From assembly GCF_009931435.1 (NCBI RefSeq), contig NZ_CP043414.1: a DNA stretch of 64,000 nt. One strand, given 5' to 3'. Source of the DNA: Escherichia coli (GTDB taxonomy: Bacteria > Pseudomonadota > Gammaproteobacteria > Enterobacterales > Enterobacteriaceae). Made by a program: the position numbers and the translations under genes. Below the pieces are notes generated by a model that saw only the letters and a list, made by a program, of their open reading frames with translations, was not told the origin of the DNA and searched no databases. Shown in pieces: positions 6,555 to 64,000 of this stretch; within the stretch, counting starts at the first letter, position 1, and every line of letters begins with the position of its first letter.

Positions 6555-7808
6555 ATGTTAAAGCGTGAAATGAACATTGCCGATTATGATGCCGAACTGT
6601 GGCAGGCTATGGAGCAGGAAAAAGTACGTCAGGAAGAGCACATCGAACTGATCGCCTCCGAAAACTACACTAGCCCGCGCGTAATGCAGGCGCAGGGTTC
6701 TCAGCTGACCAACAAATATGCTGAAGGTTATCCGGGCAAACGCTACTACGGCGGTTGCGAGTATGTTGATATCGTTGAACAACTGGCGATCGATCGCGCG
6801 AAAGAACTGTTCGGCGCTGACTACGCTAACGTCCAGCCGCACTCCGGCTCCCAGGCGAACTTTGCGGTCTACACCGCGCTGCTGGAACCCGGCGACACCG
6901 TTCTGGGTATGAACCTGGCGCATGGCGGTCACCTGACTCACGGTTCTCCGGTTAACTTCTCCGGTAAACTGTACAACATCGTTCCTTACGGTATCGATGC
7001 TACCGGTCATATCGACTACGCCGATCTGGAAAAACAAGCCAAAGAACACAAGCCGAAAATGATCATCGGTGGCTTCTCTGCATATTCCGGCGTGGTTGAC
7101 TGGGCGAAAATGCGTGAAATCGCTGACAGCATCGGTGCTTACCTGTTCGTTGATATGGCGCACGTTGCGGGACTGGTCGCTGCTGGCGTCTACCCGAACC
7201 CGGTTCCTCATGCTCACGTAGTGACTACCACCACTCACAAAACCCTGGCGGGTCCGCGCGGCGGCCTGATCCTGGCGAAAGGCGGTAGCGAAGAACTGTA
7301 CAAAAAACTGAACTCTGCCGTTTTCCCTGGTGGTCAGGGCGGCCCGTTGATGCACGTAATCGCTGGTAAAGCGGTTGCTCTGAAAGAAGCGATGGAGCCT
7401 GAGTTCAAAACTTACCAACAGCAGGTCGCGAAAAACGCTAAAGCGATGGTAGAAGTATTCCTGGAGCGCGGTTACAAAGTGGTTTCCGGCGGTACTGATA
7501 ACCACCTGTTCCTGGTTGATCTGGTTGATAAAAACCTGACCGGTAAAGAAGCTGACGCCGCTCTGGGCCGTGCTAACATCACCGTCAACAAAAACAGCGT
7601 ACCGAACGATCCGAAGAGCCCGTTTGTAACCTCCGGTATTCGCGTGGGTACTCCGGCGATTACACGTCGTGGCTTTAAAGAAGCCGAAGCGAAAGAACTG
7701 GCTGGCTGGATGTGTGACGTGCTGGACAGCATCAATGATGAAGCCGTTATCGAGCGCATCAAAGGTAAAGTTCTCGACATCTGCGCACGTTATCCGGTTT
7801 ACGCATAA
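6555..7808 (+). CDS. glyA: Serine hydroxymethyltransferase
   Basis: 417 aa from [22 protein letters not shown]; PLP-binding region [14 protein letters not shown] present. Confidence 0.95.
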
Positions 7809-7845
7809 GCGAAACGGTGATTTGCTGACAATGTGCTCGTTGTTC

Positions 7846-49921: not shown

Positions 49922-51040
49922 ATGCATAACCAGGCTCCAATTCAACGTAGAAAATCAACACGTATTTACGTTGGGAATGTGCCGATTGGCGATGGTGCCC
50001 CCATCGCCGTACAGTCCATGACCAATACGCGTACGACAGACGTCGAAGCTACGGTCAATCAAATTAAGGCGCTGGAACGTGTTGGCGCTGATATCGTCCG
50101 TGTCTCCGTACCGACGATGGACGCGGCAGAAGCGTTCAAGCTCATCAAACAACAGGTTAACGTGCCGCTGGTGGCTGACATCCACTTCGACTATCGCATT
50201 GCGCTGAAAGTAGCGGAATACGGCGTCGATTGTCTGCGTATTAACCCTGGCAATATCGGCAATGAAGAACGCATCCGCATGGTGGTTGACTGTGCGCGCG
50301 ATAAAAACATTCCGATCCGTATTGGCGTTAACGCTGGATCGCTGGAAAAAGATCTGCAAGAAAAGTATGGCGAACCGACGCCGCAGGCGTTGCTGGAATC
50401 TGCCATGCGTCATGTTGATCATCTCGATCGCCTGAACTTCGATCAGTTCAAAGTCAGCGTGAAAGCGTCTGACGTCTTCCTCGCTGTTGAGTCTTATCGT
50501 TTGCTGGCAAAACAGATCGATCAACCGCTGCATCTTGGGATCACCGAAGCGGGTGGCGCACGTAGTGGGGCAGTAAAATCTGCCATTGGTTTAGGCCTGC
50601 TGCTGTCTGAAGGCATCGGCGACACGCTGCGCGTATCGCTGGCGGCCGATCCGGTCGAAGAGATCAAAGTCGGTTTCGATATTTTGAAATCGCTGCGTAT
50701 CCGTTCGCGCGGGATCAACTTCATCGCCTGCCCGACCTGTTCGCGTCAGGAGTTTGACGTTATCGGTACGGTTAACGCCCTGGAGCAACGCCTGGAAGAT
50801 ATCATCACCCCGATGGACGTTTCGATTATCGGCTGCGTGGTGAATGGACCAGGTGAGGCGCTGGTTTCTACACTCGGCGTCACCGGCGGCAACAAGAAAA
50901 GCGGCCTCTATGAAGATGGCGTGCGCAAAGACCGTCTGGACAACAACGATATGATCGACCAGCTGGAAGCGCGCATTCGTGCGAAAGCCAGCCAACTGGA
51001 TGAAGCGCGTCGAATTGACGTTCAGCAGGTTGAAAAATAA
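49922..51040 (+). CDS. ispG: 4-hydroxy-3-methylbut-2-en-1-yl diphosphate synthase
   Basis: 372 aa; C-terminal [4Fe-4S] Cys motif CPTCSR ... GCVVNGPGE. Confidence 0.95.
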
Positions 51041-51150
51041 TAACGTGATGGGAAGCGCCTCGCTTCCCGTGTATGATTGAACCCGCATGGCTCCCGAAAT
51101 ATTGAGGGGCGCGTTGAGGGTTCATTTTTATATTCAGAAAGAGAATAAAC

Positions 51151-52440
51151 GTGTCGAAGAAAATTCAGTCTGTACGCGGTATGAATGATTATTTGCCAGT
51201 GGAAACCGCTGTATGGCAACGCGTTGAGCGCATAATTAAAAGCGTTGTTGAGTCTTACGGATACAGTGAGATTCGCACACCTATTCTTGAGCAAACGCCA
51301 CTGTTTAAGCGCGCTATCGGTGAAGTTACCGATGTTGTTGAAAAGGAGATGTACACCTTCAACGATCGTGAGCGTGATGCAAAAGAGGTTGTCTCGTTAA
51401 CTCTTCGCCCTGAAGGTACAGCAGGATGTGTACGCGCCGGTATAGAGCATGGCCTTCTGTACAATCAGGAACAGCGTTTGTGGTATATGGGGCCGATGTT
51501 CCGTCACGAACGCCCGCAAAAAGGTCGTTATCGACAGTTCCACCAAATCGGTCTCGAAGTTTTTGGCCTACAGGGTCCAGATATCGACGCCGAACTCATT
51601 ATGCTTACTGCTCGTTGGTGGCGTGAACTGGGTATCTCTGAACACGTAACTCTTGAGCTGAACTCTATCGGTTCGCTGGAAGCACGCGCCAATTATCGCG
51701 ATGCGCTGGTTGCATTCCTTGAGCAGCATAAAGAAAAGCTGGACGAAGACTGCAAACGCCGCATGTACACTAACCCGCTGCGCGTGCTGGATTCCAAAAA
51801 TCCGGAAGTGCAGGCCCTTCTCAACGACGCCCCAGCATTAGGTGACTATCTTGACGAGGAATCTCGTGAGCACTTTGCTGGTCTGTGCAAACTGCTGGAG
51901 AGCGCGGGTATCGCTTACACCGTAAACCAGCGTCTGGTGCGTGGTCTGGATTACTATAACCGTACTGTTTTTGAGTGGGTGACTAACAGCCTCGGTTCCC
52001 AGGGCACCGTGTGCGCAGGCGGTCGTTATGACGGTCTGGTGGAACAACTGGGTGGTCGTGCAACACCGGCAGTCGGTTTCGCGATGGGCCTCGAACGTCT
52101 TGTATTGTTAGTTCAGGCCGTTAATCCGGAATTTAAAGCCGATCCTGTTGTCGATATATATCTGGTGGCTTCAGGTGCTGACACACAATCTGCGGCTATG
52201 GCATTAGCAGAGCGTCTGCGTGATGAATTACCGGGCGTGAAACTGATGACCAACCACGGCGGCGGCAACTTTAAGAAGCAGTTTGCCCGTGCTGATAAAT
52301 GGGGCGCCCGCGTTGCTGTGGTGCTGGGTGAGTCTGAAGTGGCTAACGGCACAGCAGTAGTGAAGGATTTGCGCTCTGGTGAGCAAACGGCAGTTGCGCA
52401 GGATAGCGTAGCCGCGCATTTGCGCACGTTACTGGGTTAA
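51151..52440 (+). CDS. hisS: Histidine--tRNA ligase (N-terminal ~150 codons divergent from the K-12 allele)
   Basis: 429 aa from a GTG start; class II aaRS motifs present; the C-terminal ~280 aa match K-12 HisRS as recalled, while the N-terminal region differs and is 5 aa longer. Confidence 0.9.
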
Positions 52441-52457
52441 GGAAGGAGAAGGACAGC

Positions 52458-53078
52458 GTGGAAATTTACGAGAACGAAAACGACCAGGTTGAAGCGGTTA
52501 AACGCTTTTTTGCTGAAAATGGCAAAGCACTGGCTGTTGGGGTGATTTTGGGCGTTGGCGCATTGATTGGCTGGCGCTACTGGAACAGCCATCAGGTTGA
52601 TTCTACACGCTCCGCTTCTCTTGCCTATCAAAATGCGGTTACCGCAGTGAGCGAAGGCAAACCGGATAGCATCCCGGCGGCGGAAAAATTTGCTGCTGAA
52701 AATAAAAATACCTATGGTGCGCTGGCTTCTTTGGAACTTGCGCAGCAATTTGTTGACAAAAATGAACTAGAGAAAGCTGCCACCCAGTTACAACAGGGAT
52801 TGGCAGACACGAGCGATGAAAATCTCAAAGCCGTGATAAATCTGCGTCTTGCCCGCGTTCAGGTACAGCTCAAGCAGGCTGATGCCGCGCTGAAAACCCT
52901 CGATACCATCAAAGGTGAAGGGTGGGCTGCCATTGTTGCCGACCTGCGTGGCGAAGCATTGCTGAGCAAAGGTGATAAGCAAGGTGCGCGTAGTGCATGG
53001 GAAGCTGGCGTGAAAAGCGATGTTACCCCGGCACTGAGCGAAATGATGCAGATGAAAATTAATAATTTGTCCATCTGA
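52458..53078 (+). CDS. yfgM: Membrane-anchored TPR-like protein YfgM
   Basis: 206 aa; N-terminal TM anchor; K-12 synteny between hisS and bamB. Confidence 0.85.
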   Translation: MEIYENENDQVEAVKRFFAENGKALAVGVILGVGALIGWRYWNSHQVDSTRSASLAYQNAVTAVSEGKPDSIPAAEKFAAENKNTYGALASLELAQQFVDKNELEKAATQLQQGLADTSDENLKAVINLRLARVQVQLKQADAALKTLDTIKGEGWAAIVADLRGEALLSKGDKQGARSAWEAGVKSDVTPALSEMMQMKINNLSI

Positions 53079-53088
53079 GAGGGACCCG

Positions 53089-54267
53089 ATGCAATTGCGT
53101 AAATTACTGCTGCCAGGACTGCTTTCCGTTACCCTTTTAAGCGGCTGTTCGCTGTTTAACAGCGAAGAAGATGTGGTAAAGATGTCCCCATTGCCGACCG
53201 TTGAAAACCAGTTTACGCCGACCACGGCGTGGAGCACTTCCGTGGGTAGCGGCATTGGCAACTTCTATTCCAATCTTCATCCGGCACTGGCGGACAACGT
53301 TGTCTATGCAGCAGACCGCGCTGGTTTAGTAAAAGCGCTGAATGCGGATGATGGCAAAGAAATCTGGTCTGTCAGTCTGGCCGAGAAAGATGGCTGGTTC
53401 TCTAAAGAGCCTGCATTACTTTCTGGCGGCGTGACCGTGTCTGGCGGACATGTCTACATTGGTAGCGAAAAGGCGCAGGTTTACGCGCTGAATACCAGTG
53501 ATGGTACTGTGGCATGGCAGACTAAAGTCGCGGGTGAAGCGCTTTCTCGCCCGGTGGTCAGCGACGGTCTGGTGTTAATCCACACCAGTAATGGTCAGTT
53601 GCAAGCCCTGAACGAAGCTGACGGCGCTGTCAAATGGACAGTTAACCTCGATATGCCTTCACTCTCTTTGCGTGGCGAGTCTGCGCCAGCAACGGCTTTT
53701 GGTGCGGCCGTCGTGGGTGGCGATAATGGTCGCGTCAGCGCAGTGCTAATGGAACAGGGCCAGATGATTTGGCAGCAGCGTATTTCCCAGGCGACCGGTT
53801 CTACCGAAATTGACCGCCTGAGCGATGTTGACACGACTCCCGTCATTGTTAACGGCGTTGTTTTCGCGCTGGCCTATAATGGTAACCTGACGGCGCTTGA
53901 TCTGCGCAGCGGTCAGATTATGTGGAAGCGCGAACTGGGTTCGGTGAATGATTTCATCGTCGACGGCAACCGCATCTATCTGGTCGATCAAAATGACCGG
54001 GTGATGGCGTTGACCATTGATGGCGGCGTTACGCTGTGGACACAAAGCGATCTGCTGCATCGCCTGTTGACTTCTCCGGTGCTGTATAATGGCAACCTGG
54101 TGGTAGGTGACAGTGAAGGTTATCTGCACTGGATCAACGTCGAAGATGGTCGTTTCGTTGCCCAGCAAAAAGTTGATAGCTCCGGTTTCCAGACTGAACC
54201 GGTTGCCGCTGACGGCAAACTGCTGATCCAGGCAAAAGACGGGACTGTGTACTCTATTACACGTTAA
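53089..54267 (+). CDS. bamB: Outer membrane protein assembly lipoprotein BamB
   Basis: 392 aa; lipobox LLSGC; PQQ-like beta-propeller repeats. Confidence 0.9.
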   Translation: MQLRKLLLPGLLSVTLLSGCSLFNSEEDVVKMSPLPTVENQFTPTTAWSTSVGSGIGNFYSNLHPALADNVVYAADRAGLVKALNADDGKEIWSVSLAEKDGWFSKEPALLSGGVTVSGGHVYIGSEKAQVYALNTSDGTVAWQTKVAGEALSRPVVSDGLVLIHTSNGQLQALNEADGAVKWTVNLDMPSLSLRGESAPATAFGAAVVGGDNGRVSAVLMEQGQMIWQQRISQATGSTEIDRLSDVDTTPVIVNGVVFALAYNGNLTALDLRSGQIMWKRELGSVNDFIVDGNRIYLVDQNDRVMALTIDGGVTLWTQSDLLHRLLTSPVLYNGNLVVGDSEGYLHWINVEDGRFVAQQKVDSSGFQTEPVAADGKLLIQAKDGTVYSITR

Positions 54268-54384
54268 TCGTCTCTGTCGTTCACTTTGAAAACGGCTCCT
54301 GGACAGGGGCCGTTTTCCTGTTTTTAACAACGACACGAATATAGCGTGCGTTGTCTGATGATTTATAAAAATGAGGCTTTAAAC

Positions 54385-55857
54385 ATGGTACCTGTGGTCG
54401 CGCTTGTCGGGCGCCCTAACGTAGGAAAATCCACGTTATTTAACCGTCTAACTCGCACCCGAGATGCGCTGGTTGCGGATTTCCCGGGTCTGACTCGTGA
54501 CCGTAAGTACGGTCGTGCGGAAATTGAAGGCCGCGAGTTTATCTGTATTGATACCGGCGGGATTGACGGAACAGAAGACGGTGTAGAAACCCGCATGGCG
54601 GAACAGTCGCTGCTGGCGATTGAAGAAGCGGACGTCGTACTGTTTATGGTGGATGCGCGCGCGGGCCTGATGCCTGCGGATGAAGCGATTGCTAAACATC
54701 TGCGCTCCCGCGAAAAACCGACCTTCCTGGTGGCAAACAAAACCGATGGTCTGGATCCGGATCAGGCCGTTGTTGATTTCTATTCGCTCGGTTTAGGTGA
54801 AATCTATCCTATCGCCGCGTCTCACGGTCGTGGCGTATTAAGTCTGCTGGAGCACGTGCTGTTGCCGTGGATGGAAGATATCGCACCACAAGAAGAAGTG
54901 GATGAAGACGCTGAATACTGGGCGCAATTTGAAGCAGAAGAAAACGGCGAAGAAGAAGAGGAAGATGACTTTGACCCGCAAAGTCTGCCAATCAAACTGG
55001 CGATAGTGGGTCGTCCTAACGTCGGTAAGTCGACACTCACTAACCGTATCCTTGGCGAAGAACGCGTCGTGGTTTACGACATGCCGGGCACTACGCGTGA
55101 CAGTATCTACATTCCAATGGAACGCGATGGGCGTGAGTATGTACTCATTGACACTGCGGGCGTACGTAAACGCGGCAAAATCACCGATGCGGTAGAGAAA
55201 TTCTCCGTAATCAAAACATTGCAGGCGATTGAAGATGCCAACGTGGTGATGTTGGTGATTGATGCTCGCGAGGGTATTTCCGATCAGGATCTCTCCTTAC
55301 TGGGCTTTATTCTCAATAGTGGGCGCTCACTTGTGATTGTAGTGAACAAGTGGGACGGCCTGAGCCAGGAAGTGAAAGAGCAAGTAAAAGAGACGCTGGA
55401 CTTCCGTCTGGGCTTTATCGACTTCGCCCGTGTGCATTTTATCTCTGCATTACACGGCAGCGGCGTTGGTAACCTGTTTGAGTCAGTACGTGAAGCGTAT
55501 GACAGCTCCACCCGTCGCGTGGGTACGTCAATGCTGACGCGTATCATGACCATGGCGGTTGAAGATCACCAGCCGCCGCTGGTTCGCGGGCGTCGTGTGA
55601 AGCTGAAATATGCCCACGCCGGGGGTTATAACCCGCCAATTGTGGTGATTCATGGCAACCAGGTGAAAGACCTGCCTGATTCCTATAAGCGTTATCTGAT
55701 GAACTACTTCCGCAAGTCTCTGGACGTGATGGGTACGCCGATTCGTATTCAGTTCAAAGAAGGGGAAAACCCATATGCGAACAAGCGTAACACCCTGACG
55801 CCGACCCAGATGCGCAAGCGTAAGCGTTTGATGAAGCATATTAAGAAAAGTAAGTAA
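54385..55857 (+). CDS. der: Ribosome-associated GTPase Der (EngA)
   Basis: 490 aa from [16 protein letters not shown]; two G domains (GRPNVGKST twice) separated by an acidic linker; the ORF track extends the frame to 54346. Confidence 0.95.
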
Positions 55858-55919
55858 TCACTTATCTGGTTTCCCTTTCCAAACGGAGAGGGAAACTGAA
55901 CAACAGGCGAGGAGTATTT

Positions 55920-56135
55920 ATGGAACTCAACTGCCCAACCTGCCATAACCCTCTCGAACGCAACGGTGAAACTGCCCACTGTGCAACTTGTGCCAAAGAT
56001 TTCACCATTCAGGCGCTTTGTCCTGACTGCCATCAGCCATTACAGGTGTTAAAAGCTTGTGGTGCAGTAGATTATTTCTGCCAGCATGGGCACGGTTTAA
56101 TATCCAAAAAGCGCGTTGAATTTATTGTTGCTTAA
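55920..56135 (+). CDS. yfgJ: Small Cys-rich zinc-ribbon-like protein
   Basis: 71 aa with CPTC ... CATC ... CPDC ... CQHGH motifs; K-12 synteny after der. Confidence 0.8.
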   Translation: MELNCPTCHNPLERNGETAHCATCAKDFTIQALCPDCHQPLQVLKACGAVDYFCQHGHGLISKKRVEFIVA

Positions 56136-56326
56136 TATTATTTAAATATATGGTGTAATCATTTGTATTCATAATATAAATGATTGCATCCTATTTTATT
56201 TGTTGAAACGCAAATGTAAGTGAGCGAAATCACTGTGTTATAAATTTAAGATTATATTTAGTTTTCCTGGCGTGCCTTTCTGAATAATCTGGAATAGAAT
56301 ATTAGAGCTAATTTTAAGCATTATTA
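56136..56326. other. AT-rich core/accessory junction and probable sinH promoter region
   Basis: About 190 bp markedly AT-rich compared with flanking coding DNA; lies where K-12 has the short yfgJ-xseA spacer. Confidence 0.5.
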
Positions 56327-58519
56327 ATGTCACAGGGGATGTGCATGCTGCGATGGAAACGCTGTATTATGCTAACATTTATCTCTGGAGCTGCTTTTGC
56401 GGCTCCAGAGATAAATGTTGAGCATAAAGAATCGTTACCTGATTTAGGTAGTCAGGCCGCACAACAGGAAGAGCAAACTAACAAGGGTAAATCGCTAAAA
56501 GAGCGTGGTGCCGATTACGTCATTAACTCTGCCACGCAAGGGTTTGAAAACCTCACACCCGAGGCGCTGGAGTCCCAGGCCAGAAGCTATCTGCAAAGTC
56601 AAATTACCTCTACGACACAATCTTATATTGAGGATACACTCTCCCCCTACGGTAAGGTCCGAACGAATCTTTCTCTTGGTCAGGGCGGCGATCTGGATGG
56701 CAGTTCCATCGACTATTTTGTTCCCTGGTATGATAATCAAACTACTGTTTATTTCAGCCAATTTTCTGCACAACGAAAAGAAGATCGTACGATCGGGAAT
56801 ATTGGGCTTGGTGTAAGACATAATTTTGATAGATGGTTATTGGGTGGAAATATATTTTATGATTATGATTTTACCCGTGGGCATCGCCGTTTAGGTTTAG
56901 GTGCCGAAGCCTGGACTGATTATTTAAAATTCTCTGGCAACTATTATCATCCGCTTTCTGACTGGAAAGACTCCGAAGATTTCGATTTTTATGAGGAGCG
57001 TCCTGCGCGCGGTTGGGATATTCGCGCCGAAGCCTGGCTACCTGCTTACCCGCAGCTTGGCGGTAAAATCGTTTTCGAACAGTATTACGGTGATGAAGTC
57101 GCGCTTTTTGGCACCGATAATCTGGAGAAAGATCCCTTCGCCGTCACGCTGGGTGTGAAATACCAGCCCGTACCGCTCATTGCCGTAGGAACGGATTTCA
57201 AAGCCGGCACTGGCGATAATACCGATCTTTCTGTTAACGCAACGCTGAACTACCAGTTTGGCGTCTCGCTCAAAGACCAGCTTGATCCTGACAAAGTAAG
57301 CGCGGCTCACTCGCTCATGGGCAGCCGTCACGACTTTGTTGAACGTAACAACTTTATTGTTCTGGAATACAAAGAGAAAGATCCCCTCGATGTCACTTTG
57401 TGGCTGAAAGCTGATGCGACGAATGAACATCCCGAGTGCGTGATTAAAGATACGCCAGAAGCAGCCATCGGGCTGGAAAAATGTAAGTGGACCATTAACG
57501 CGCTCATTAATCATCATTACAAAATCGTTGCTGCCTCCTGGCAGGCGAAAAACAATGCTGCACGTACGCTGGTGATGCCGGTTATCAAAGAAAATACGCT
57601 TACCGAAGGGAACAACAATCACTGGAATCTGGTGCTGCCTGCCTGGCAGTACAGCTCTGATAAAGCCGACCAGGAAAAACTCAATACCTGGCGGGTACGC
57701 CTGGCGCTGGAAGATGAAAAAGGCAATCGGCAGAACTCCGGCGTGGTGGAAATTACCGTTCAGCAGGACCGTAAAATTGAGCTCATTGTTAACAACATCG
57801 CCAATGTACCGGATGAGAACAATCACAGCCACGAAGCCAGCGCGCAAGCGGATGGTGTAGATGGTGTCGTCATGGATCTCGACGTTACCGATAGCTTTGG
57901 CGACAACACTGACCGTAACGGTAATGTCTTGCCGCAGGATAATCTCAGCCCGCAGCTGTTTGATGCCAACGATAAAAAAGTGACGCTGACGAATAAACCC
58001 TGCACCACCGAAGTGCCGTGCGTTTTTATCGTCAAACAAGATAAAGAAAAGGGGACCGTTACGCTCTCCAGTACGTTGCCCGGCACTTTCCGCTGGAAGG
58101 CGAAAGCCGCCCCTTATGATGACAGTAACTATGTTGACGTAACGTTCCTGGGTTCTGACATCGGCGGGCTGAATGCTTTTATCTACCGCGTTGGTGCAGC
58201 TAAGCCCGTCAATCTTATCGGCAACAAAGAACCGTTGCCTCTCAATAGCCGCTATCGCTTTGTGCTGTGGCGCGACGCTAACAAAGACGGCGTGTTCCAG
58301 CTTTCTGAGAAGCTCACTGACGATGAGATGAAACAGTATGACTATCAGTGGGAATTCACGGGGCATAGCGTAAATGGCAATACCGGTGCGCAAACCAATA
58401 CCACGAACGTCGATATAGAGATCCCGGCAACCAACAAGGAAGCGGCAGCAAAGTTTAGTGCCCAGGTAACCGATGGCGTGCAGGGATACGGTTTGCAGGT
58501 CAATTACAGCAAGAAATAG
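56327..58519 (+). CDS. sinH: Intimin/invasin-family outer membrane protein (inverse autotransporter)
   Basis: 730 aa; signal peptide ending AFA; beta-barrel-like segment with aromatic-rich strands (GWDIRAEAWLPAYPQLGGKIVFEQYYGDE); in-frame alternative starts at 56339 and 56345. Confidence 0.7.
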   Translation: MSQGMCMLRWKRCIMLTFISGAAFAAPEINVEHKESLPDLGSQAAQQEEQTNKGKSLKERGADYVINSATQGFENLTPEALESQARSYLQSQITSTTQSYIEDTLSPYGKVRTNLSLGQGGDLDGSSIDYFVPWYDNQTTVYFSQFSAQRKEDRTIGNIGLGVRHNFDRWLLGGNIFYDYDFTRGHRRLGLGAEAWTDYLKFSGNYYHPLSDWKDSEDFDFYEERPARGWDIRAEAWLPAYPQLGGKIVFEQYYGDEVALFGTDNLEKDPFAVTLGVKYQPVPLIAVGTDFKAGTGDNTDLSVNATLNYQFGVSLKDQLDPDKVSAAHSLMGSRHDFVERNNFIVLEYKEKDPLDVTLWLKADATNEHPECVIKDTPEAAIGLEKCKWTINALINHHYKIVAASWQAKNNAARTLVMPVIKENTLTEGNNNHWNLVLPAWQYSSDKADQEKLNTWRVRLALEDEKGNRQNSGVVEITVQQDRKIELIVNNIANVPDENNHSHEASAQADGVDGVVMDLDVTDSFGDNTDRNGNVLPQDNLSPQLFDANDKKVTLTNKPCTTEVPCVFIVKQDKEKGTVTLSSTLPGTFRWKAKAAPYDDSNYVDVTFLGSDIGGLNAFIYRVGAAKPVNLIGNKEPLPLNSRYRFVLWRDANKDGVFQLSEKLTDDEMKQYDYQWEFTGHSVNGNTGAQTNTTNVDIEIPATNKEAAAKFSAQVTDGVQGYGLQVNYSKK

Positions 58520-58574
58520 GGTCGGCGCCATGGCTGATCGGGCCACCGCTGAATATTAATCAAGGAGAGTGTTT

Positions 58575-59567
58575 ATGAAACCTGATATGAAACGTGGCCT
58601 GACAAAAGTCGCGCTCGCGTTGATGCTGGCTGGATACTGTGCCGTACCAGCCGCTATGGCGGAAGATGCCGCCTGGGTCGCCAGTGGAGCGACCGCTGAA
58701 TTCGAAGGGACTATACCCTGGCTCTATCGCGAAGGGGGGAATGCCACGATTAACTCGGAAGATGCGGATCACATTAAAGTGACGTCTGATGGTAAAGGGA
58801 CCCGCCCTGCAGGTAGCGAGACGGATAAACGCCTTTACTCAGGGGATACCATCACGCTGGGATGGGATATCGGCGATACCGAAGGGGATGTTGATGATGG
58901 TCCCGCAGGCATTGATGCGAAAACGACGGCCACTATCAAATGGTACAGCTACAGCAATAATGCGGGTGGCGATAAAACGGAGCTGACCGCAGCGGCAGGC
59001 AAGACGAGTTATAAACTCACTGATGACGATCGTGGGCGTTATATCGGTGTTGAAATCCAGCCCATCACCCAGACCGGTAATCCCTTCGAGGGAACGTCGC
59101 TGACTCTGCTGGATATTTCAACGGCCAGCGGTGGCGGCAGCGATACGGACAATGTCGATCCCGGCCCGGTTGTGAACCAGAATCTGAAAGTTGCCATCTT
59201 CGAGAAAGGCACCACTACCAACCTTATCGGTGGTAACACGGCCATTGCGCTTAATAAAACGTATGTGGCCAAACTGTACTCGGATGAAAACCAGAACGAT
59301 AAATACGACGCAGGTACGGATATGGACGTTACCGCTAACTATGACTTTGCATGGGTCTTTAACGGTAACAGTAAACAACTTGCTGCGGCGGGCGGTATTG
59401 CTAATGCCAGCTTCGATAACAATGACATTGTTATCCCGCAAACTAACGAAGAAGCAAGAACCAGCCTTAATGGTAGTGACCGTAATGGTAAGAGTGGTCT
59501 TGCGATCCCGGCAAACGGCGACGGCGTTCAGGGCTATACGCTGTCTATCATTTACAAACACCACTAA
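58575..59567 (+). CDS. sinI: Secreted protein of unknown function, SinI/SivI-like
   Basis: About 330 aa from the ATG at 58575 (AAGGAG RBS); signal peptide ending AMA; position between sinH and ratA. Confidence 0.65.
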   Translation: MKPDMKRGLTKVALALMLAGYCAVPAAMAEDAAWVASGATAEFEGTIPWLYREGGNATINSEDADHIKVTSDGKGTRPAGSETDKRLYSGDTITLGWDIGDTEGDVDDGPAGIDAKTTATIKWYSYSNNAGGDKTELTAAAGKTSYKLTDDDRGRYIGVEIQPITQTGNPFEGTSLTLLDISTASGGGSDTDNVDPGPVVNQNLKVAIFEKGTTTNLIGGNTAIALNKTYVAKLYSDENQNDKYDAGTDMDVTANYDFAWVFNGNSKQLAAAGGIANASFDNNDIVIPQTNEEARTSLNGSDRNGKSGLAIPANGDGVQGYTLSIIYKHH

Positions 59568-59574
59568 TGCGCAC

Positions 59575-59613
59575 AACAGCATTCCCATATGGGAATGCTG
59601 TTTTCCGCCTGTT
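59575..59613 (+). terminator. Hairpin terminator downstream of sinI
   Basis: 12-bp stem aacagcattccc / gggaatgctgtt with loop atat, followed by a T-rich tail. Confidence 0.6.
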
Positions 59614-59676
59614 TTGCTTAGCGACGCGTTAAGCAAAACAGGTTGATGTTTTGTTTATCATGCTGGAGTTTTCTAC

Positions 59677-62600
59677 ATGTCGGTATGTCTGAAACCAGGG
59701 AAAATCATTATGCTTCTGGGCATGTTGGCAGCTTTTATGCTGTCTGACTTTGCACGGGCAGGGGCGGAATGGCAGACATATCCTGATTCTACAGGCGAGT
59801 TTAACGGAACCGTTCCTTTTGCCGACAGCGCCAGCGTACCCGTCTATCAGGGCAGTGTTCAGCTTAATCCTGCTGAATCTCATGATGTCGGGTTTTCTGC
59901 TAAACCGAATGAATTTAGTGTTGACGATGACGCTGCTAACCTGATTGTTGCTAATCCTCAGGACAATGAAGGCGACCAGTTTTCCACACCACCTGCGCTG
60001 CGCTGGGAAAATCAAACACCCCCTACCGTCAGCCTGGTGTGGGCCGATGCCGCCACGCCCGATGTGCCCCTTAACCCACAACCCATTGCTAACCGTAGCT
60101 TTTGCGCTCAGGGGCTCGCCGGACGCTCGCTGGTGGCCTGGCCGCAGATTGATGCGCAGCAAACCCTCCCACTGCTCTACCTGCTGACCTCGACCGGGTA
60201 TCCCTATGCGGGGACGGTGGCGCTGGTGGACCAGAAAGTGACCCTGAACATCGCGCCCGCGCAGGGCGATTTAATCTCGGTGAGCGCCAGCGGTTATAAC
60301 GAAACGATCGCGGCGGCAAAAACCACCGTTGGCGACACCATCACGCTCACCGTCACCACTAAAGATTGTCAGGGCAACGTCGCGGGTAATATTCCGTTTA
60401 TTATCAAACGTAAAGATGCTGAAAATCGCCAGGGGGCAGTGAATAATAGTGCGCCAGTGGTACTGGATAGCACCGAGTTAACGACGACGGCTACCGAATA
60501 CCATGGCACCTCTGATTCCAACGGCACGGCCACCATCACGGTGAGCCAACCGAACGGCCCTGGTGTCAAAACGCCACTGGTGGTCAGCATTTCCGGCATT
60601 GCGCAAACCAGCGAAACCGCAGTGATTTTTACCGTACTCACCAGCCCGGACGTGGCGCAGGCTACGATGTGGGGCCATATGGCGGAGACGGTAGAAGCCC
60701 ACGGTTACACCTTCAGTCGACCAAAGCTGGCGGCAGAAGTCAGCAATGAAAGCGCCACGGTTGTCGATCATAACGAAACCTGGTCCACCTTCACCTGGAG
60801 CGGCGCAGATAGCCACTGCACCGTGCTGCCCGGCATGCGCCACTTCGGCGCGCTGGCGACCGTTATCCCCACGTCGGTGCAGACAGCCCTTGGCTGGCCG
60901 ATGCAGGGGGATTATTACTGGTCATCGCTGGCGGGCACCACCGGGCAGCACCATGCGGCGGATGTCTCTAACCGTAGTGAAACGCAAAAGCCGGATAGCA
61001 CCCCGTTTCTTGTGAGCTGCGTGGATAAACCCGCGCCTGATGTCGAACCGAAAATCGTCCTTACGCCCGAAAACTATGATGATACGGCACAGGCGATGAA
61101 ATCGCAGGTGGGCGAAGACGCCACGATGCGTCTGACGATCACCGACAATAAAAATAACGATCAACCACTGGCGTATTACTACTTCTCGCTGCATCTGGAT
61201 GACGGCGTTAACCGCAAAAATCAAACCGATTCCGCCTGGGAAGCCCATCCGGTGCAGATTACTGGTGGTTCGAATTTACAACAGGTTGATGCTCACACCT
61301 ATGAAGGCATGACCGATGTCAACGGTCAGGCTTCGCTAACCCTGAGTCAGCCCGACGGCGCAGGCGTGAAAACCCATATCACGGCGAAAATGCGCAGCAA
61401 TTTTACGGCTACAGATGCCAAAGACGTGATTTTTACTGTGATCACCAGCCCGGACAGCGACAAGGCGCGGATGTGGGGCCATATGCGCGGCATTGTTGTA
61501 TCTGGCAGTCTGTTCAAACGCCCAGTGCTGGCGGATGAAACTGAGCATGAACTGGGATCGGTGCGGGAAAATGACGAAGACTGGGCGCTGTTCGATCAAG
61601 ACACCAGTATGCAGGCTGAATGCGGCGTCGGCCATACGCCACGTCAGAGTGGGCTGGAAAGCCTGTTTTCAGCCCATCCCGGTAACGCGATTGGCACTGA
61701 GTATGGCTGGCCCACCGCCCAACAGAGCTACTTAAGCGCGGTGGAGCAAGCCACGCATTCATCGGTGAATCTGGGGAACGGAAACGTCGACAGCTACTCC
61801 GGCTTTAAGCAGAATTACCTCTCCTGTTCGGGCAATGAGATGGTAGCGAAGGTTGAAGTCAGCACCGATCACGATATCACCCCTGGCAGCAAAGCGCAGG
61901 CCAAAGTAGGTGACACCATCGTGATGACCGTGCGTACGATTAACGCGCTCAATAATACCCCGGTACCCTTTACTGCATTCACCATTACCAAAGGCATGGG
62001 GTATAACCGAGCGGGGCTGGTGAGCGGGTTTGATGACCCGAGCAGCGGCGCAATCTCGATGAATGGCACGCAATACGGCACATCACAGCCGTCGATGGTC
62101 TACACAGGTACGACAGATGCACAAGGCGTGGCAACGGTCGAAATAGAGCAACCCCAGGGGGTGGGGTTAAGAACCGTGCTGAGCATTACGCCGGTCAATT
62201 CCCATCTACCAAATGCCATTAATTACAATGTTATTTTTACCACCCCAACCAGCCCGGATGTTAGTGGGGCGCAGATGTGGGGCCATATGGATGAAACGAT
62301 TACCGTTGATTCATTAACCTTTACCCGGCCTAAGCTGGCAGCAGAAATCGCCAGTCCGGATGGCACACTAACGGAAAAAAACGAAGTCTGGGCGCGCGTT
62401 AGCCAGGCCAGTACGGCCATTACCAGTAAAGGCGGTTGCGGAACCAATATGCTGCCGCGCCGCTCCCAGCTCAGTGCGCTTTATGACGCTAATAACGGTA
62501 ATGCGGTGCAAGCCACACACGGCTGGCCGACGCAGCGTCAGCCCTACTGGAGCAGTTCCCCCGCGGATTTAACGCCGCACAATTACACCATTGCCCTGGA

Positions 62601-64000
62601 TAACGGCGCACAGGCCATCGGCGGCGATACGCCGGTTTACGTCAGTTGCCTGACGACGGCGAACAAACCTGCCAGCAGCATTACGCTGGATGTGGTTGAT
62701 AACGCACAGTGGGCTGCCGGAAATAACGCGGCGAAGCTGAAAAAAGGCGAAACGCTACGGGTTAAGGTAACGGTAAAAGATGCGCAGGGTAATCCGCTCA
62801 CGGATATGCCATTTAAACTGAGTCGCGGAGACGGTTATACCCGCACGGGCGAAAAACATATTGCCGGTAGTGGCGATGCGCTGGTGGCACCGGTGGTGAT
62901 TAACAGTGGGCTGGCGGATGAAACGACGTTGAACGACACCGCGGGATTTTATACTGCCATGACCGGTAGCGACGGCAGCAAAATCCTCAATATTACCCGC
63001 CCGGATACTCACGGCACCAAAACGGCGCTGACGGCGACGTTGTATTCCGATCCAACAAAAAAAGACAGCCTGGATACAATCTTTACTGTGGTCACCAGCC
63101 CGGATAGTAGCAAAGCGAAAATGTGGGGGCATATGCCGGAAACGGTGACGGCTGCGGACGGTACGGTATTTAAACGCCCGCTGTTGTTGAAGGAACTGGC
63201 CTATCAGACTGGGCGAACATCGACGTCTGAAGACAATGAAAACTGGGCGTTGTTTAACATTAATTATGCGAGTTCTTCCACGACGTATAGTGGCTGTGGA
63301 ACCAACTATATTCCGACTCAAGCCGGTCTGACGTCACTGTTTGCTAATAATGCGGGCAACACCATGAAAACCGTGCAGGGCTGGCCGGTGGCAACACGCT
63401 ATTTGTCCAACACGTCCGACAACGGCAGCATGGAGCAGCGTAACTACAAGGCGGTAGATCTCAGCAATGGCACGAGTGCGGCAGTGTCATCAACGGCGCT
63501 GCAACTGCTGACCTGCCAGACCACGCCGGTAACCACGGTGGGCCAAATTCTGCTGGAAGCGGCAGATCCGGCGACGCTGGATACCACCTATAACGTGGTA
63601 AAAGCGAAAAAAGGCGAAGAATCCGTGGTGCGCGTCACCACCAAAGATACGCAAGGCAACCTGGTGGGCAATACGGCATTTATCCTGACGCGTGCCAACA
63701 GCGTGAGTCGGGCTAACGCATCAGCAACCGCGAGCGTGGGCGCGCTGACGGTGACGGATGCTTGGGGAAATACGCGAAATAATTTCCAGTCGACGAGTGA
63801 AACGATTTACGGCGTGACTGGTGCAGACGGGTCAACGACATTTACCCTGAAACAGGATAACAGTACCGGGTTAAGAACCGATCTCACGGCAAAACTGGAT
63901 ACGTCCAGCAGCGTCAAGGCGACGCTACCGGTGGTCTTTACTGTCGTGACCAGCCCGGATTCGCCAAAAGCGAATTTTTGGGGACATATGGCCGAAACGG
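59677..64000 (+). CDS. ratA: Giant modular secreted/surface protein, RatA/RatB-like (5' partial; continues past window end)
   Basis: Single open frame with no stop from about 59677 to 64000 (at least 1441 codons), not in the ORF track because it has no in-window stop; signal peptide; repeated modules with the motif [VI][VI]FT..TSPD......WGHM. Confidence 0.75.
60500..64000 (+). repeat. Tandem protein-coding modules within ratA (period about 804-855 nt)
   Basis: Anchor motif starts at about 60622, 61426, 62230, 63076 and 63931, giving 268, 268, 282 and 285 aa spacing; flanking residues diverge, so the duplication is old. Confidence 0.65.

Follow-up and report, generated by a model that had tools for sequence, protein, structure and literature searches.

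An Escherichia coli RatA-like protein of tandem Ig-like and C-type-lectin-like modules with a conserved motif at each domain junction

A RatA-like gene and its modules

The subject of this study is a gene that lies at the end of a 64,000-nt stretch of Escherichia coli DNA (NCBI RefSeq assembly GCF_009931435.1, contig NZ_CP043414.1; hereafter, the window). The open reading frame (ORF) in question represents the 5′ half of the E. coli ratA-like gene, which comes third in a sinH-sinI-ratA (“ila,” CS54-type) island. No stop interrupts the frame between 59647 and the window end at 64000; its first ATG is at 59677, the other five frames are closed, and the gene is truncated by the window end inside its fifth module. 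An earlier reading of the letters (the original prediction) had described at least five modules of ~270–285 amino acids (aa), each with an invariant TSPD...WGHM motif, and had named a stop codon or frameshift as what would refute it. Retranslation of 59677–64000 found neither in the ratA-like frame. The five TSPD-x6-WGHM strings (Table 1) are there as quoted, with WGHM beginning at residues 332, 600, 868, 1150, and 1435, thus at spacings of 268, 268, 282, and 285, and the stated module length holds. Given the composition of the ORF, the chance expectation is 0.0007 for WGHM and 0.05 for TSPD; each occurs five times.

The rest of the gene can be read in E. coli 2020CK-00188, which is 100% identical to window positions 50677–64000 by megablast (window 59677–64000 corresponds to L001:9001–13324, where L001 is the locus record of this strain). 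The full-length gene is 8085 nt and encodes 2694 aa, named “adhesion domain-containing protein” in RefSeq, and the window holds aa 1–1441. Although the last 13.3 kb are 100% identical to this strain, the glyA region (window 6584–7837) is 99.8% identical at an offset of 29 nt, so the window must stem from a very close relative or another assembly and not from exactly this record.

Nine modules make up the 2694-aa protein, which terminates with the ninth adhesion domain, and the count of “at least five” was therefore correct. WGHM occurs eight times and WGYM once (module 7), and TSPD eight times and TSPN once. Because the modules are only 26%–43% identical to one another in the module alignment, the repeats must be old, with the motif as a conserved island and no recent duplication. 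The WGYM of module 7 (L001:15010–15024, aa 2005–2008, beyond the window) is a natural His-to-Tyr variant, and the orthologous position reads WGHM in three other E. coli alleles. The adhesion domain of module 9 (L001:16336–17082, also beyond the window) is a distinct subtype, with TSPN rather than TSPD and four Cys rather than two; its C terminus, ...GFATCFQ, is conserved and is also found in the last modules of other Rat-family proteins.

The RatA-like identity that had been proposed is borne out by the NCBIfam equivalog model PRK15316 (NF011844, “RatA-like protein”), which the full protein matches at 5410 bits (cut-off 3870), with aa 3–2694 aligned to model positions 1–2683. The window fragment alone scores 3137 bits, which is low only because it is truncated. 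Each module consists of Pfam domain BIg21 (PF05688, formerly DUF823) followed by InvE_AD, “Adhesion domain” (PF05689, formerly DUF824). This matches the Ig-like segment and second, Cys-containing segment seen originally; the adhesion domain carries two conserved Cys. The Pfam scans covered aa 1–1200 and aa 1495–2694. They gave four whole-model BIg21 matches in the first range (E of about 1e-22 to 1e-27) and four in the second, and nine InvE_AD matches (E down to 2e-33), two of them partial at the edges of the queries. The Ig domain of module 5 (aa ~1313–1424) falls between the two scans and was placed by module alignment and a module hidden Markov model (HMM), within the end-to-end alignment to PRK15316. 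The part of the module 5 adhesion domain that lies beyond the window is found in L001, where InvE_AD positions 67–135 match aa 1495–1564.

Table 1. Features of the ratA-like gene and its upstream neighbors in the window, with the evidence for each
Feature	Position (nt)	Strand	Evidence
ratA-like gene, 5′ part	59677..64000	+	Open frame; identity to L001:9001-13324; PRK15316
Sec signal peptide, predicted, 28 aa, without lipobox	59677..59760	+	Basic n-region, hydrophobic core, and A-x-A site read from sequence
Conserved beta-rich N-terminal domain, aa 29-215, family unassigned	59761..60321	+	
Module 1 Ig-like (BIg21)	60331..60639	+	PF05688 E=2.8e-27, aa 219-321
Motif 1, Ig/adhesion-domain junction	60640..60681	+	InvE_AD model position 1 at aa 324
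Module 1 adhesion domain (InvE_AD, C-type-lectin-like)	60646..61023	+	PF05689 E=1.1e-28, aa 324-449; PDB 5N40 E=5e-32
Module 2 Ig-like (BIg21)	61123..61443	+	Pfam E=3.2e-25, aa 483-589
Motif 2	61444..61485	+	Sequence
Module 2 adhesion domain (InvE_AD)	61450..61830	+	Pfam E=8e-30, aa 592-718
Module 3 Ig-like (BIg21)	61909..62244	+	Pfam E=5.4e-22, aa 745-856; AlphaFold 2 (AF2) pLDDT 91.5
Motif 3	62248..62289	+	Sequence; ordered coil in AF2 model
Module 3 adhesion domain (InvE_AD)	62254..62652	+	
Module 4 Ig-like (BIg21)	62746..63093	+	Pfam E=6.7e-25, aa 1024-1139
Motif 4	63094..63135	+	Sequence
Module 4 adhesion domain (InvE_AD), end approximate	63100..63504	+	Pfam E=1.9e-17, aa 1142-1196 (query ended at aa 1200); extent by module alignment
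Module 5 Ig-like, start approximate	63613..63948	+	Module alignment and module HMM
Motif 5	63949..63990	+	Sequence; module 5 adhesion domain cut by window end
sinH, intimin-like inverse autotransporter, 730 aa	56327..58519	+	NCBIfam NF033423 inverse_SinH, 1474 bits vs. 999 cut-off; RefSeq sinH
sinI, SinI-family autotransporter-associated, 332 aa from GTG 58569 (330 aa in RefSeq)	58569..59567	+	NCBIfam NF040711 partner_SinI, 377 bits vs. 165; RefSeq
Two tandem hairpins, sinI-ratA spacer	59578..59643	+	Terminator scan finds the second; fold -52.9 kcal/mol, z=-6.6

Fold and conservation of the domain junction

When the PDB sequences were searched with module 1, a single entry matched, 5N40, the InvE protein of Yersinia pseudotuberculosis (see Table 1). 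The 5N40 sequence contains ITSPDSAQASMWGNM, and its segment aligned to the motif reads ITSPDSAQASMWGNMAET, in which N replaces H; a homologue of the motif has therefore already been crystallized. The original prediction had suggested modeling one module, and the AlphaFold 2 (AF2) model of module 3 has a predicted local distance difference test (pLDDT) value of 91.5. Motif 3 adopts an ordered coil in this model (pLDDT ~97), leading from the final strand of the Ig domain (NVIFT) into the adhesion domain's first beta-hairpin. The adhesion domain has the two helices, the two beta-sheets, and the disulfide (linking the helix-1 region to the final strand) that define a C-type-lectin-like fold. Each module is thus an Ig-like domain plus a C-type-lectin-like head, a pairing of the kind found at the receptor-binding tip of invasin and intimin.

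InvE_AD model position 1 is the P of TSPD, and the motif spans roughly the first 12 positions of the Pfam model. TSPD-x3-A-x2-WGHM is thus the N-terminal signature of the PF05689 family: it follows immediately on the final strand of the Ig domain (..IFTV.) and opens the adhesion domain. To survey the family, we built a profile from the nine modules and ran it against 1.84 billion representative proteins; only 377 clusters were found at E ≤ 1e-3, so the family is small. About a dozen of the clusters are of the multi-module Rat type, and most others carry a single C-terminal module on a long protein (the InvE type). Over 146 full modules from the family, the motif residues are conserved as follows: F of ..IFTV. 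96%, T 95%, S 99%, P 100%, D 95%, A 99%, W 85% (Y 14%), G 100%, H 88%, and M 99%. In the remaining 12% of modules, the His is replaced by Y, N, R, D, or A, with Y in module 7 and N in InvE. The claim that WGHM is invariant consequently stands for the five copies in the window, but not for the full protein or the family, and the motif is not an unusual mark of this protein, being common to the whole InvE_AD family (146 modules, many proteins).

It had been suggested that WGHM could mark a binding or catalytic subdomain. As a marker of the adhesion domain the motif does hold up. Catalysis is another matter: the His could in principle flag a distant relative of the FGE and EgtB enzymes, which also have a C-type-lectin-like fold. 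However, the RatA-like protein has no Pfam or NCBIfam match to enzyme families of the FGE-sulfatase or EgtB type, its adhesion domain is half the size of FGE-type enzymes, and the His is replaceable (module 7, InvE). A catalytic role is unsupported for these reasons, and we consider it very improbable.

The motif as a binding surface needs more care, and here the distribution of variation within the module is informative. Downstream from the motif, the conserved elements are R-P-x-L-x2-E, E-x-W, G-W-P, and the C-terminal Cys; the second, N-terminal Cys is invariant in an alignment of 56 sequences. Mean column entropy is 1.06 bits at the junction, which has no indels, and 3.19 bits in the segment from GWP to the last Cys, which has the most. 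The same is seen among four E. coli alleles, which are 87%–96% identical at the junction and 50%–78% identical in the post-GWP loop region. In C-type-lectin-like domains, the usual ligand surface is the loop region after the WIGL-equivalent strand, and the N and C termini lie together at the opposite end. Given this loop geometry and the G, P, W, and M residues of the motif, we favor the motif as a scaffold or interdomain element, with the variable loops as the exposed surface. The motif, the least variable part of the module, is probably not itself the binding surface, and the post-GWP loops are more likely to be.

The conserved block (TSPD..WGHM, RPxLxxE, and ExW) could instead be a binding site common to all modules, either for a host glycan or protein or as a tether to the cell's own surface (lipopolysaccharide, SinH, or SinI). 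The R, E, E, W, and H residues are near-invariant across modules that are otherwise ~30% identical, RatA has no anchor of its own (for which a tether would be of use), and the Pfam family is named “Adhesion domain,” all of which would fit. However, the block occupies the N-terminal edge of the adhesion domain, where it borders on the Ig domain, and, going by the fold, ligand sites are usually in the loops on the far side. Moreover, the His can be replaced (by Y, N, R, D, or A), residues such as G, P, W, and M are typical of scaffolds, and the fastest-evolving part of the module is elsewhere. A shared site of this kind seems unlikely to us, and the junction as scaffold remains the reading that we carry forward.

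Alleles, neighboring genes, and export

A ratA match is present in 1733 of 5426 complete E. coli genomes, at the der-sinH-sinI-ratA-xseA position. The allele in the window is rare (two genomes at ≥99% identity), and 980 genomes fall in the band of 60%–80% nucleotide identity. The commonest allele class (strain 317) has ~65% protein and 74% nucleotide identity to the window allele, with equal module number and order. Four representative E. coli alleles encode 2694, 2691, 2693, and 2683 aa, and all have nine modules in the same order. Protein identity to the window allele is 86%–87% for two of the others and 65% for the third, with modules 5–8 the most divergent. The comparison of module numbers suggested at the outset gives nine for the four E. 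coli alleles, seven for E. albertii and for Citrobacter amalonaticus, five to eight for Salmonella, and five for Atlantibacter.

Among E. coli alleles, amino acid identity is 66%–87% for ratA and 68%–95% for sinI, compared with 95%–99.6% for der and xseA on either side. Despite this conservation of their proteins, the island flanks are unusually divergent between strains at the DNA level (window ~54385–64000, and xseA at L001:17141–18508): nucleotide identity is ~94% for der and 88%–90% for xseA, and ~97.5% for glyA, ~50 kb away. The pattern suggests allele classes that are old, recombine, and center on the sinI/ratA locus.

Such variation could also mean that the modules bind nothing specific and that RatA is a variable surface coat, spacer, decoy, or periplasmic protein whose repeats only give length. 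Alleles that are 66%–87% identical beside der and xseA at 95%–99%, module numbers that range from five to nine between genera, and the lack of a known ligand are all compatible with this. However, every module retains an intact lectin-like domain, the disulfide Cys pair, and the core motifs, which would be needless in a mere spacer, and a homologous single module occupies the distal tip, the receptor-binding position, of invasin-type adhesins. Colonization phenotypes are also reported: PMC8011750, citing Kingsley 2003, gives ratB as required for optimal cecal colonization, and PMC12928451 describes uropathogenic E. coli strains as attenuated in a mouse model of urinary tract infection after deletion of ila cluster genes (sinH, sinI, ratA). 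We therefore regard a purely passive role as distinctly unlikely and return to RatA as an adhesin, noting that the function of Rat proteins is indeed as poorly defined as the original prediction had said.

The gene order in 2020CK-00188 is der with a zinc-ribbon gene, sinH, the SinI-family gene, the ratA-like gene, and xseA. Genes sinH and sinI are described as co-transcribed in PMC12525524. Between sinI and ratA lie two tandem hairpins. The first (59578–59601) is followed by TTTT and looks like a sinI terminator, and the second (59607–59643) has a perfect 17-bp stem. Both are kept in the four alleles, and the most divergent of these shows compensatory changes in the second hairpin. An Rfam scan of the pair returned no family, only chance miRNA-like matches. 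Together they could act as a terminator or attenuator and so uncouple the expression of ratA from that of sinH and sinI.

The N terminus of RatA carries a predicted signal peptide, and the same layout is seen in 37 Rat-family N termini. There is a hint of similarity to SinI: the NCBIfam SinI model matches RatA aa 13–185 at E = 0.0024, and hhalign of the two N termini gives 86% probability with the signal peptides and 5% without them (reversed control P = 0.42). A pairwise BLASTP of RatA against SinI was not significant. After the cleavage site, both proteins have a short motif, W-x(7-8)-T-x-E-F-x-G-T-[VI]-P, at aa 29–45 of RatA (59761–59810) and aa ~31–47 of SinI (58659–58710), where it reads W-VASGATAEFEGTIP. 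The RatA segment is disordered in the AF2 model. This shared motif could be a common recognition tag for SinH.

Domain scans found no beta-barrel or other anchor domain in the 2694 aa of RatA. The protein is thus not itself an inverse autotransporter (type Ve), the barrel being encoded by the separate upstream gene sinH. From the genes alone, RatA does have the properties of a Zir-type two-partner substrate, namely a position downstream from a barrel gene, a signal peptide of its own, and no barrel. Rat proteins have been proposed as substrates of SinH-type barrels in the manner of ZirT/ZirS (Heinz et al. 2016, PMC4943183), and the idea of ZirT/ZirS-like export was repeated by Goh et al. (2019, PMC6714894). 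The cassette of an IAT_beta barrel gene (733–740 aa), a SinI-like gene (~320–333 aa), and a multi-module Rat gene is found in the four E. coli alleles and also in four other lineages, with at least three different chromosomal settings. The RatA type of module also sits at the tip of barrel-containing InvE-type proteins, and natural in-frame fusions of a SinH barrel to Rat modules exist.

These fusions are worth describing. At the same der-side site in two assemblies (metagenome/isolate; L011:8001–17983 and L012), in which der is 86% identical in nucleotides to that of E. coli and which are probably Salmonella, a 1616-aa ORF has the SinH barrel (aa 1–504, 74% identical) fused in frame to Rat-type modules. 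It is followed, with a 4-nt overlap (GTGA), by a 1711-aa ORF of more modules without a signal peptide. The fusion was found on 16 contigs and may be a natural fusion or a decayed island. In E. coli WL297 (NZ_CP128613.1, L005:5755–8681), a deletion has fused sinH with an internal part of ratA, midway along the gene, in the module 3 adhesion domain; sinI and most of ratA are lost, and what is left is a SinH hybrid of 816 aa plus a short piece of ratA that is annotated as a pseudogene.

Taken together, we put at about 0.7 the probability that RatA is a Sec-exported multivalent adhesin, probably displayed by SinH, in which the motif is a structural junction, with export route and ligand inferred. 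In outline, the Sec pathway would carry RatA over the inner membrane, and SinH, as the co-encoded inverse autotransporter, may then help it to or across the outer membrane in a two-partner style like that of ZirT/ZirS. There RatA could act as a long multivalent adhesin or colonization factor. The junction motif, together with RPxLxxE, ExW, GWP, and the Cys pair, would build a rigid scaffold and the interface of the Ig-like and lectin-like domains, and the hypervariable loops between GWP and the last Cys would present module-specific or allele-specific surfaces for binding or as antigens.

Several considerations count against this account. The weakest step is the presumed burial of W, G, H, and M and their contact with the Ig domain, for which we go by how conserved these residues are, what type they are, and where they lie in the fold. 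The near-invariant R139, E145, and E158 (module 3 numbering) could equally form a common binding site. We know of no ligand for any InvE_AD domain. Carbohydrate binding is not implied by the lectin-like fold, because the adhesion domains have none of the motifs of Ca-dependent lectins (EPN or QPD with WND): EPN and WND are absent from all 2694 aa, and the sole QPD, at aa 558, is in the Ig domain of module 2. With two strong hairpins intervening, transcription of ratA may not simply continue from that of sinH and sinI. The likeness of the RatA and SinI N termini, which might otherwise point to a shared targeting domain, shrinks to P = 0.007 without the signal peptides. Finally, surface exposure, SinH-dependent secretion, and adhesion of E. 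coli RatA are all predictions at present.

A more elaborate version of the adhesin would be a barrel-less string of nine lectin-like heads, threaded through SinH, each with its own ligand specificity encoded in its loops, and with the junction aiding sequential folding outside the cell or recognition by SinH/SinI. We find this doubtful; if true, it would amount to a two-partner system derived from type Ve that exports a ~280-kDa multispecific adhesin.

Relation to known systems

The finding is real but already known, in that existing catalogues cover the protein family, its two domain families, and the crystal structure of a homologue, and the export route and ligands of RatA are questions already recognized in the literature. 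What is clarified here is that the motif starts a C-type-lectin-like adhesion domain and is non-catalytic, that E. coli RatA has nine heads, and that variation concentrates after GWP. On the practical side, the neighboring SinH is being pursued as a vaccine antigen against extraintestinal pathogenic E. coli (ExPEC).

The ORF in the window encodes the same protein as the E. coli RatA-like protein of the ila locus of ExPEC (PRK15316). Its closest relatives elsewhere are Salmonella RatA and RatB of the CS54 island (PRK15315 and PRK15314, “DUF823/DUF824 repeat adhesin”), with which it shares the N-terminal domain, the BIg21 and InvE_AD modules, and the place after sinH and sinI. At 1860 and 2435 aa, the Salmonella proteins do not reach the length of the E. 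coli protein, which scores 2015 and 2238 bits against their models. As both scores are under the cut-offs (3700 and 4079), it is best considered a paralogue or a neighboring orthologue group, not RatA or RatB proper. The Salmonella ZirT/ZirS/ZirU system resembles the RatA locus in having a barrel gene followed by genes for barrel-less, signal-peptide-bearing Ig-fold proteins, with conserved synteny (PMC4943183, PMC6714894). RatA is about ten times larger than ZirS, and its SinH-dependent secretion is hypothetical.

Y. pseudotuberculosis InvE is the type protein of InvE_AD, and the 5N40 chain holds a single C-terminal module with N at the H position. InvE belongs to the inverse autotransporters and so brings a beta-barrel of its own; RatA, unlike it, has nine tandem modules, no barrel, and H at the motif. 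Invasin (D4–D5; PDB 1CWV) and intimin (D2–D3; PDB 1F02) have no detectable sequence similarity to RatA and belong to different Pfam families. Invasin binds integrin and intimin binds Tir, whereas no ligand is known for RatA. The Ig-like plus C-type-lectin-like tip is nevertheless common to all three, with one such unit per protein in invasin and intimin and nine in RatA.

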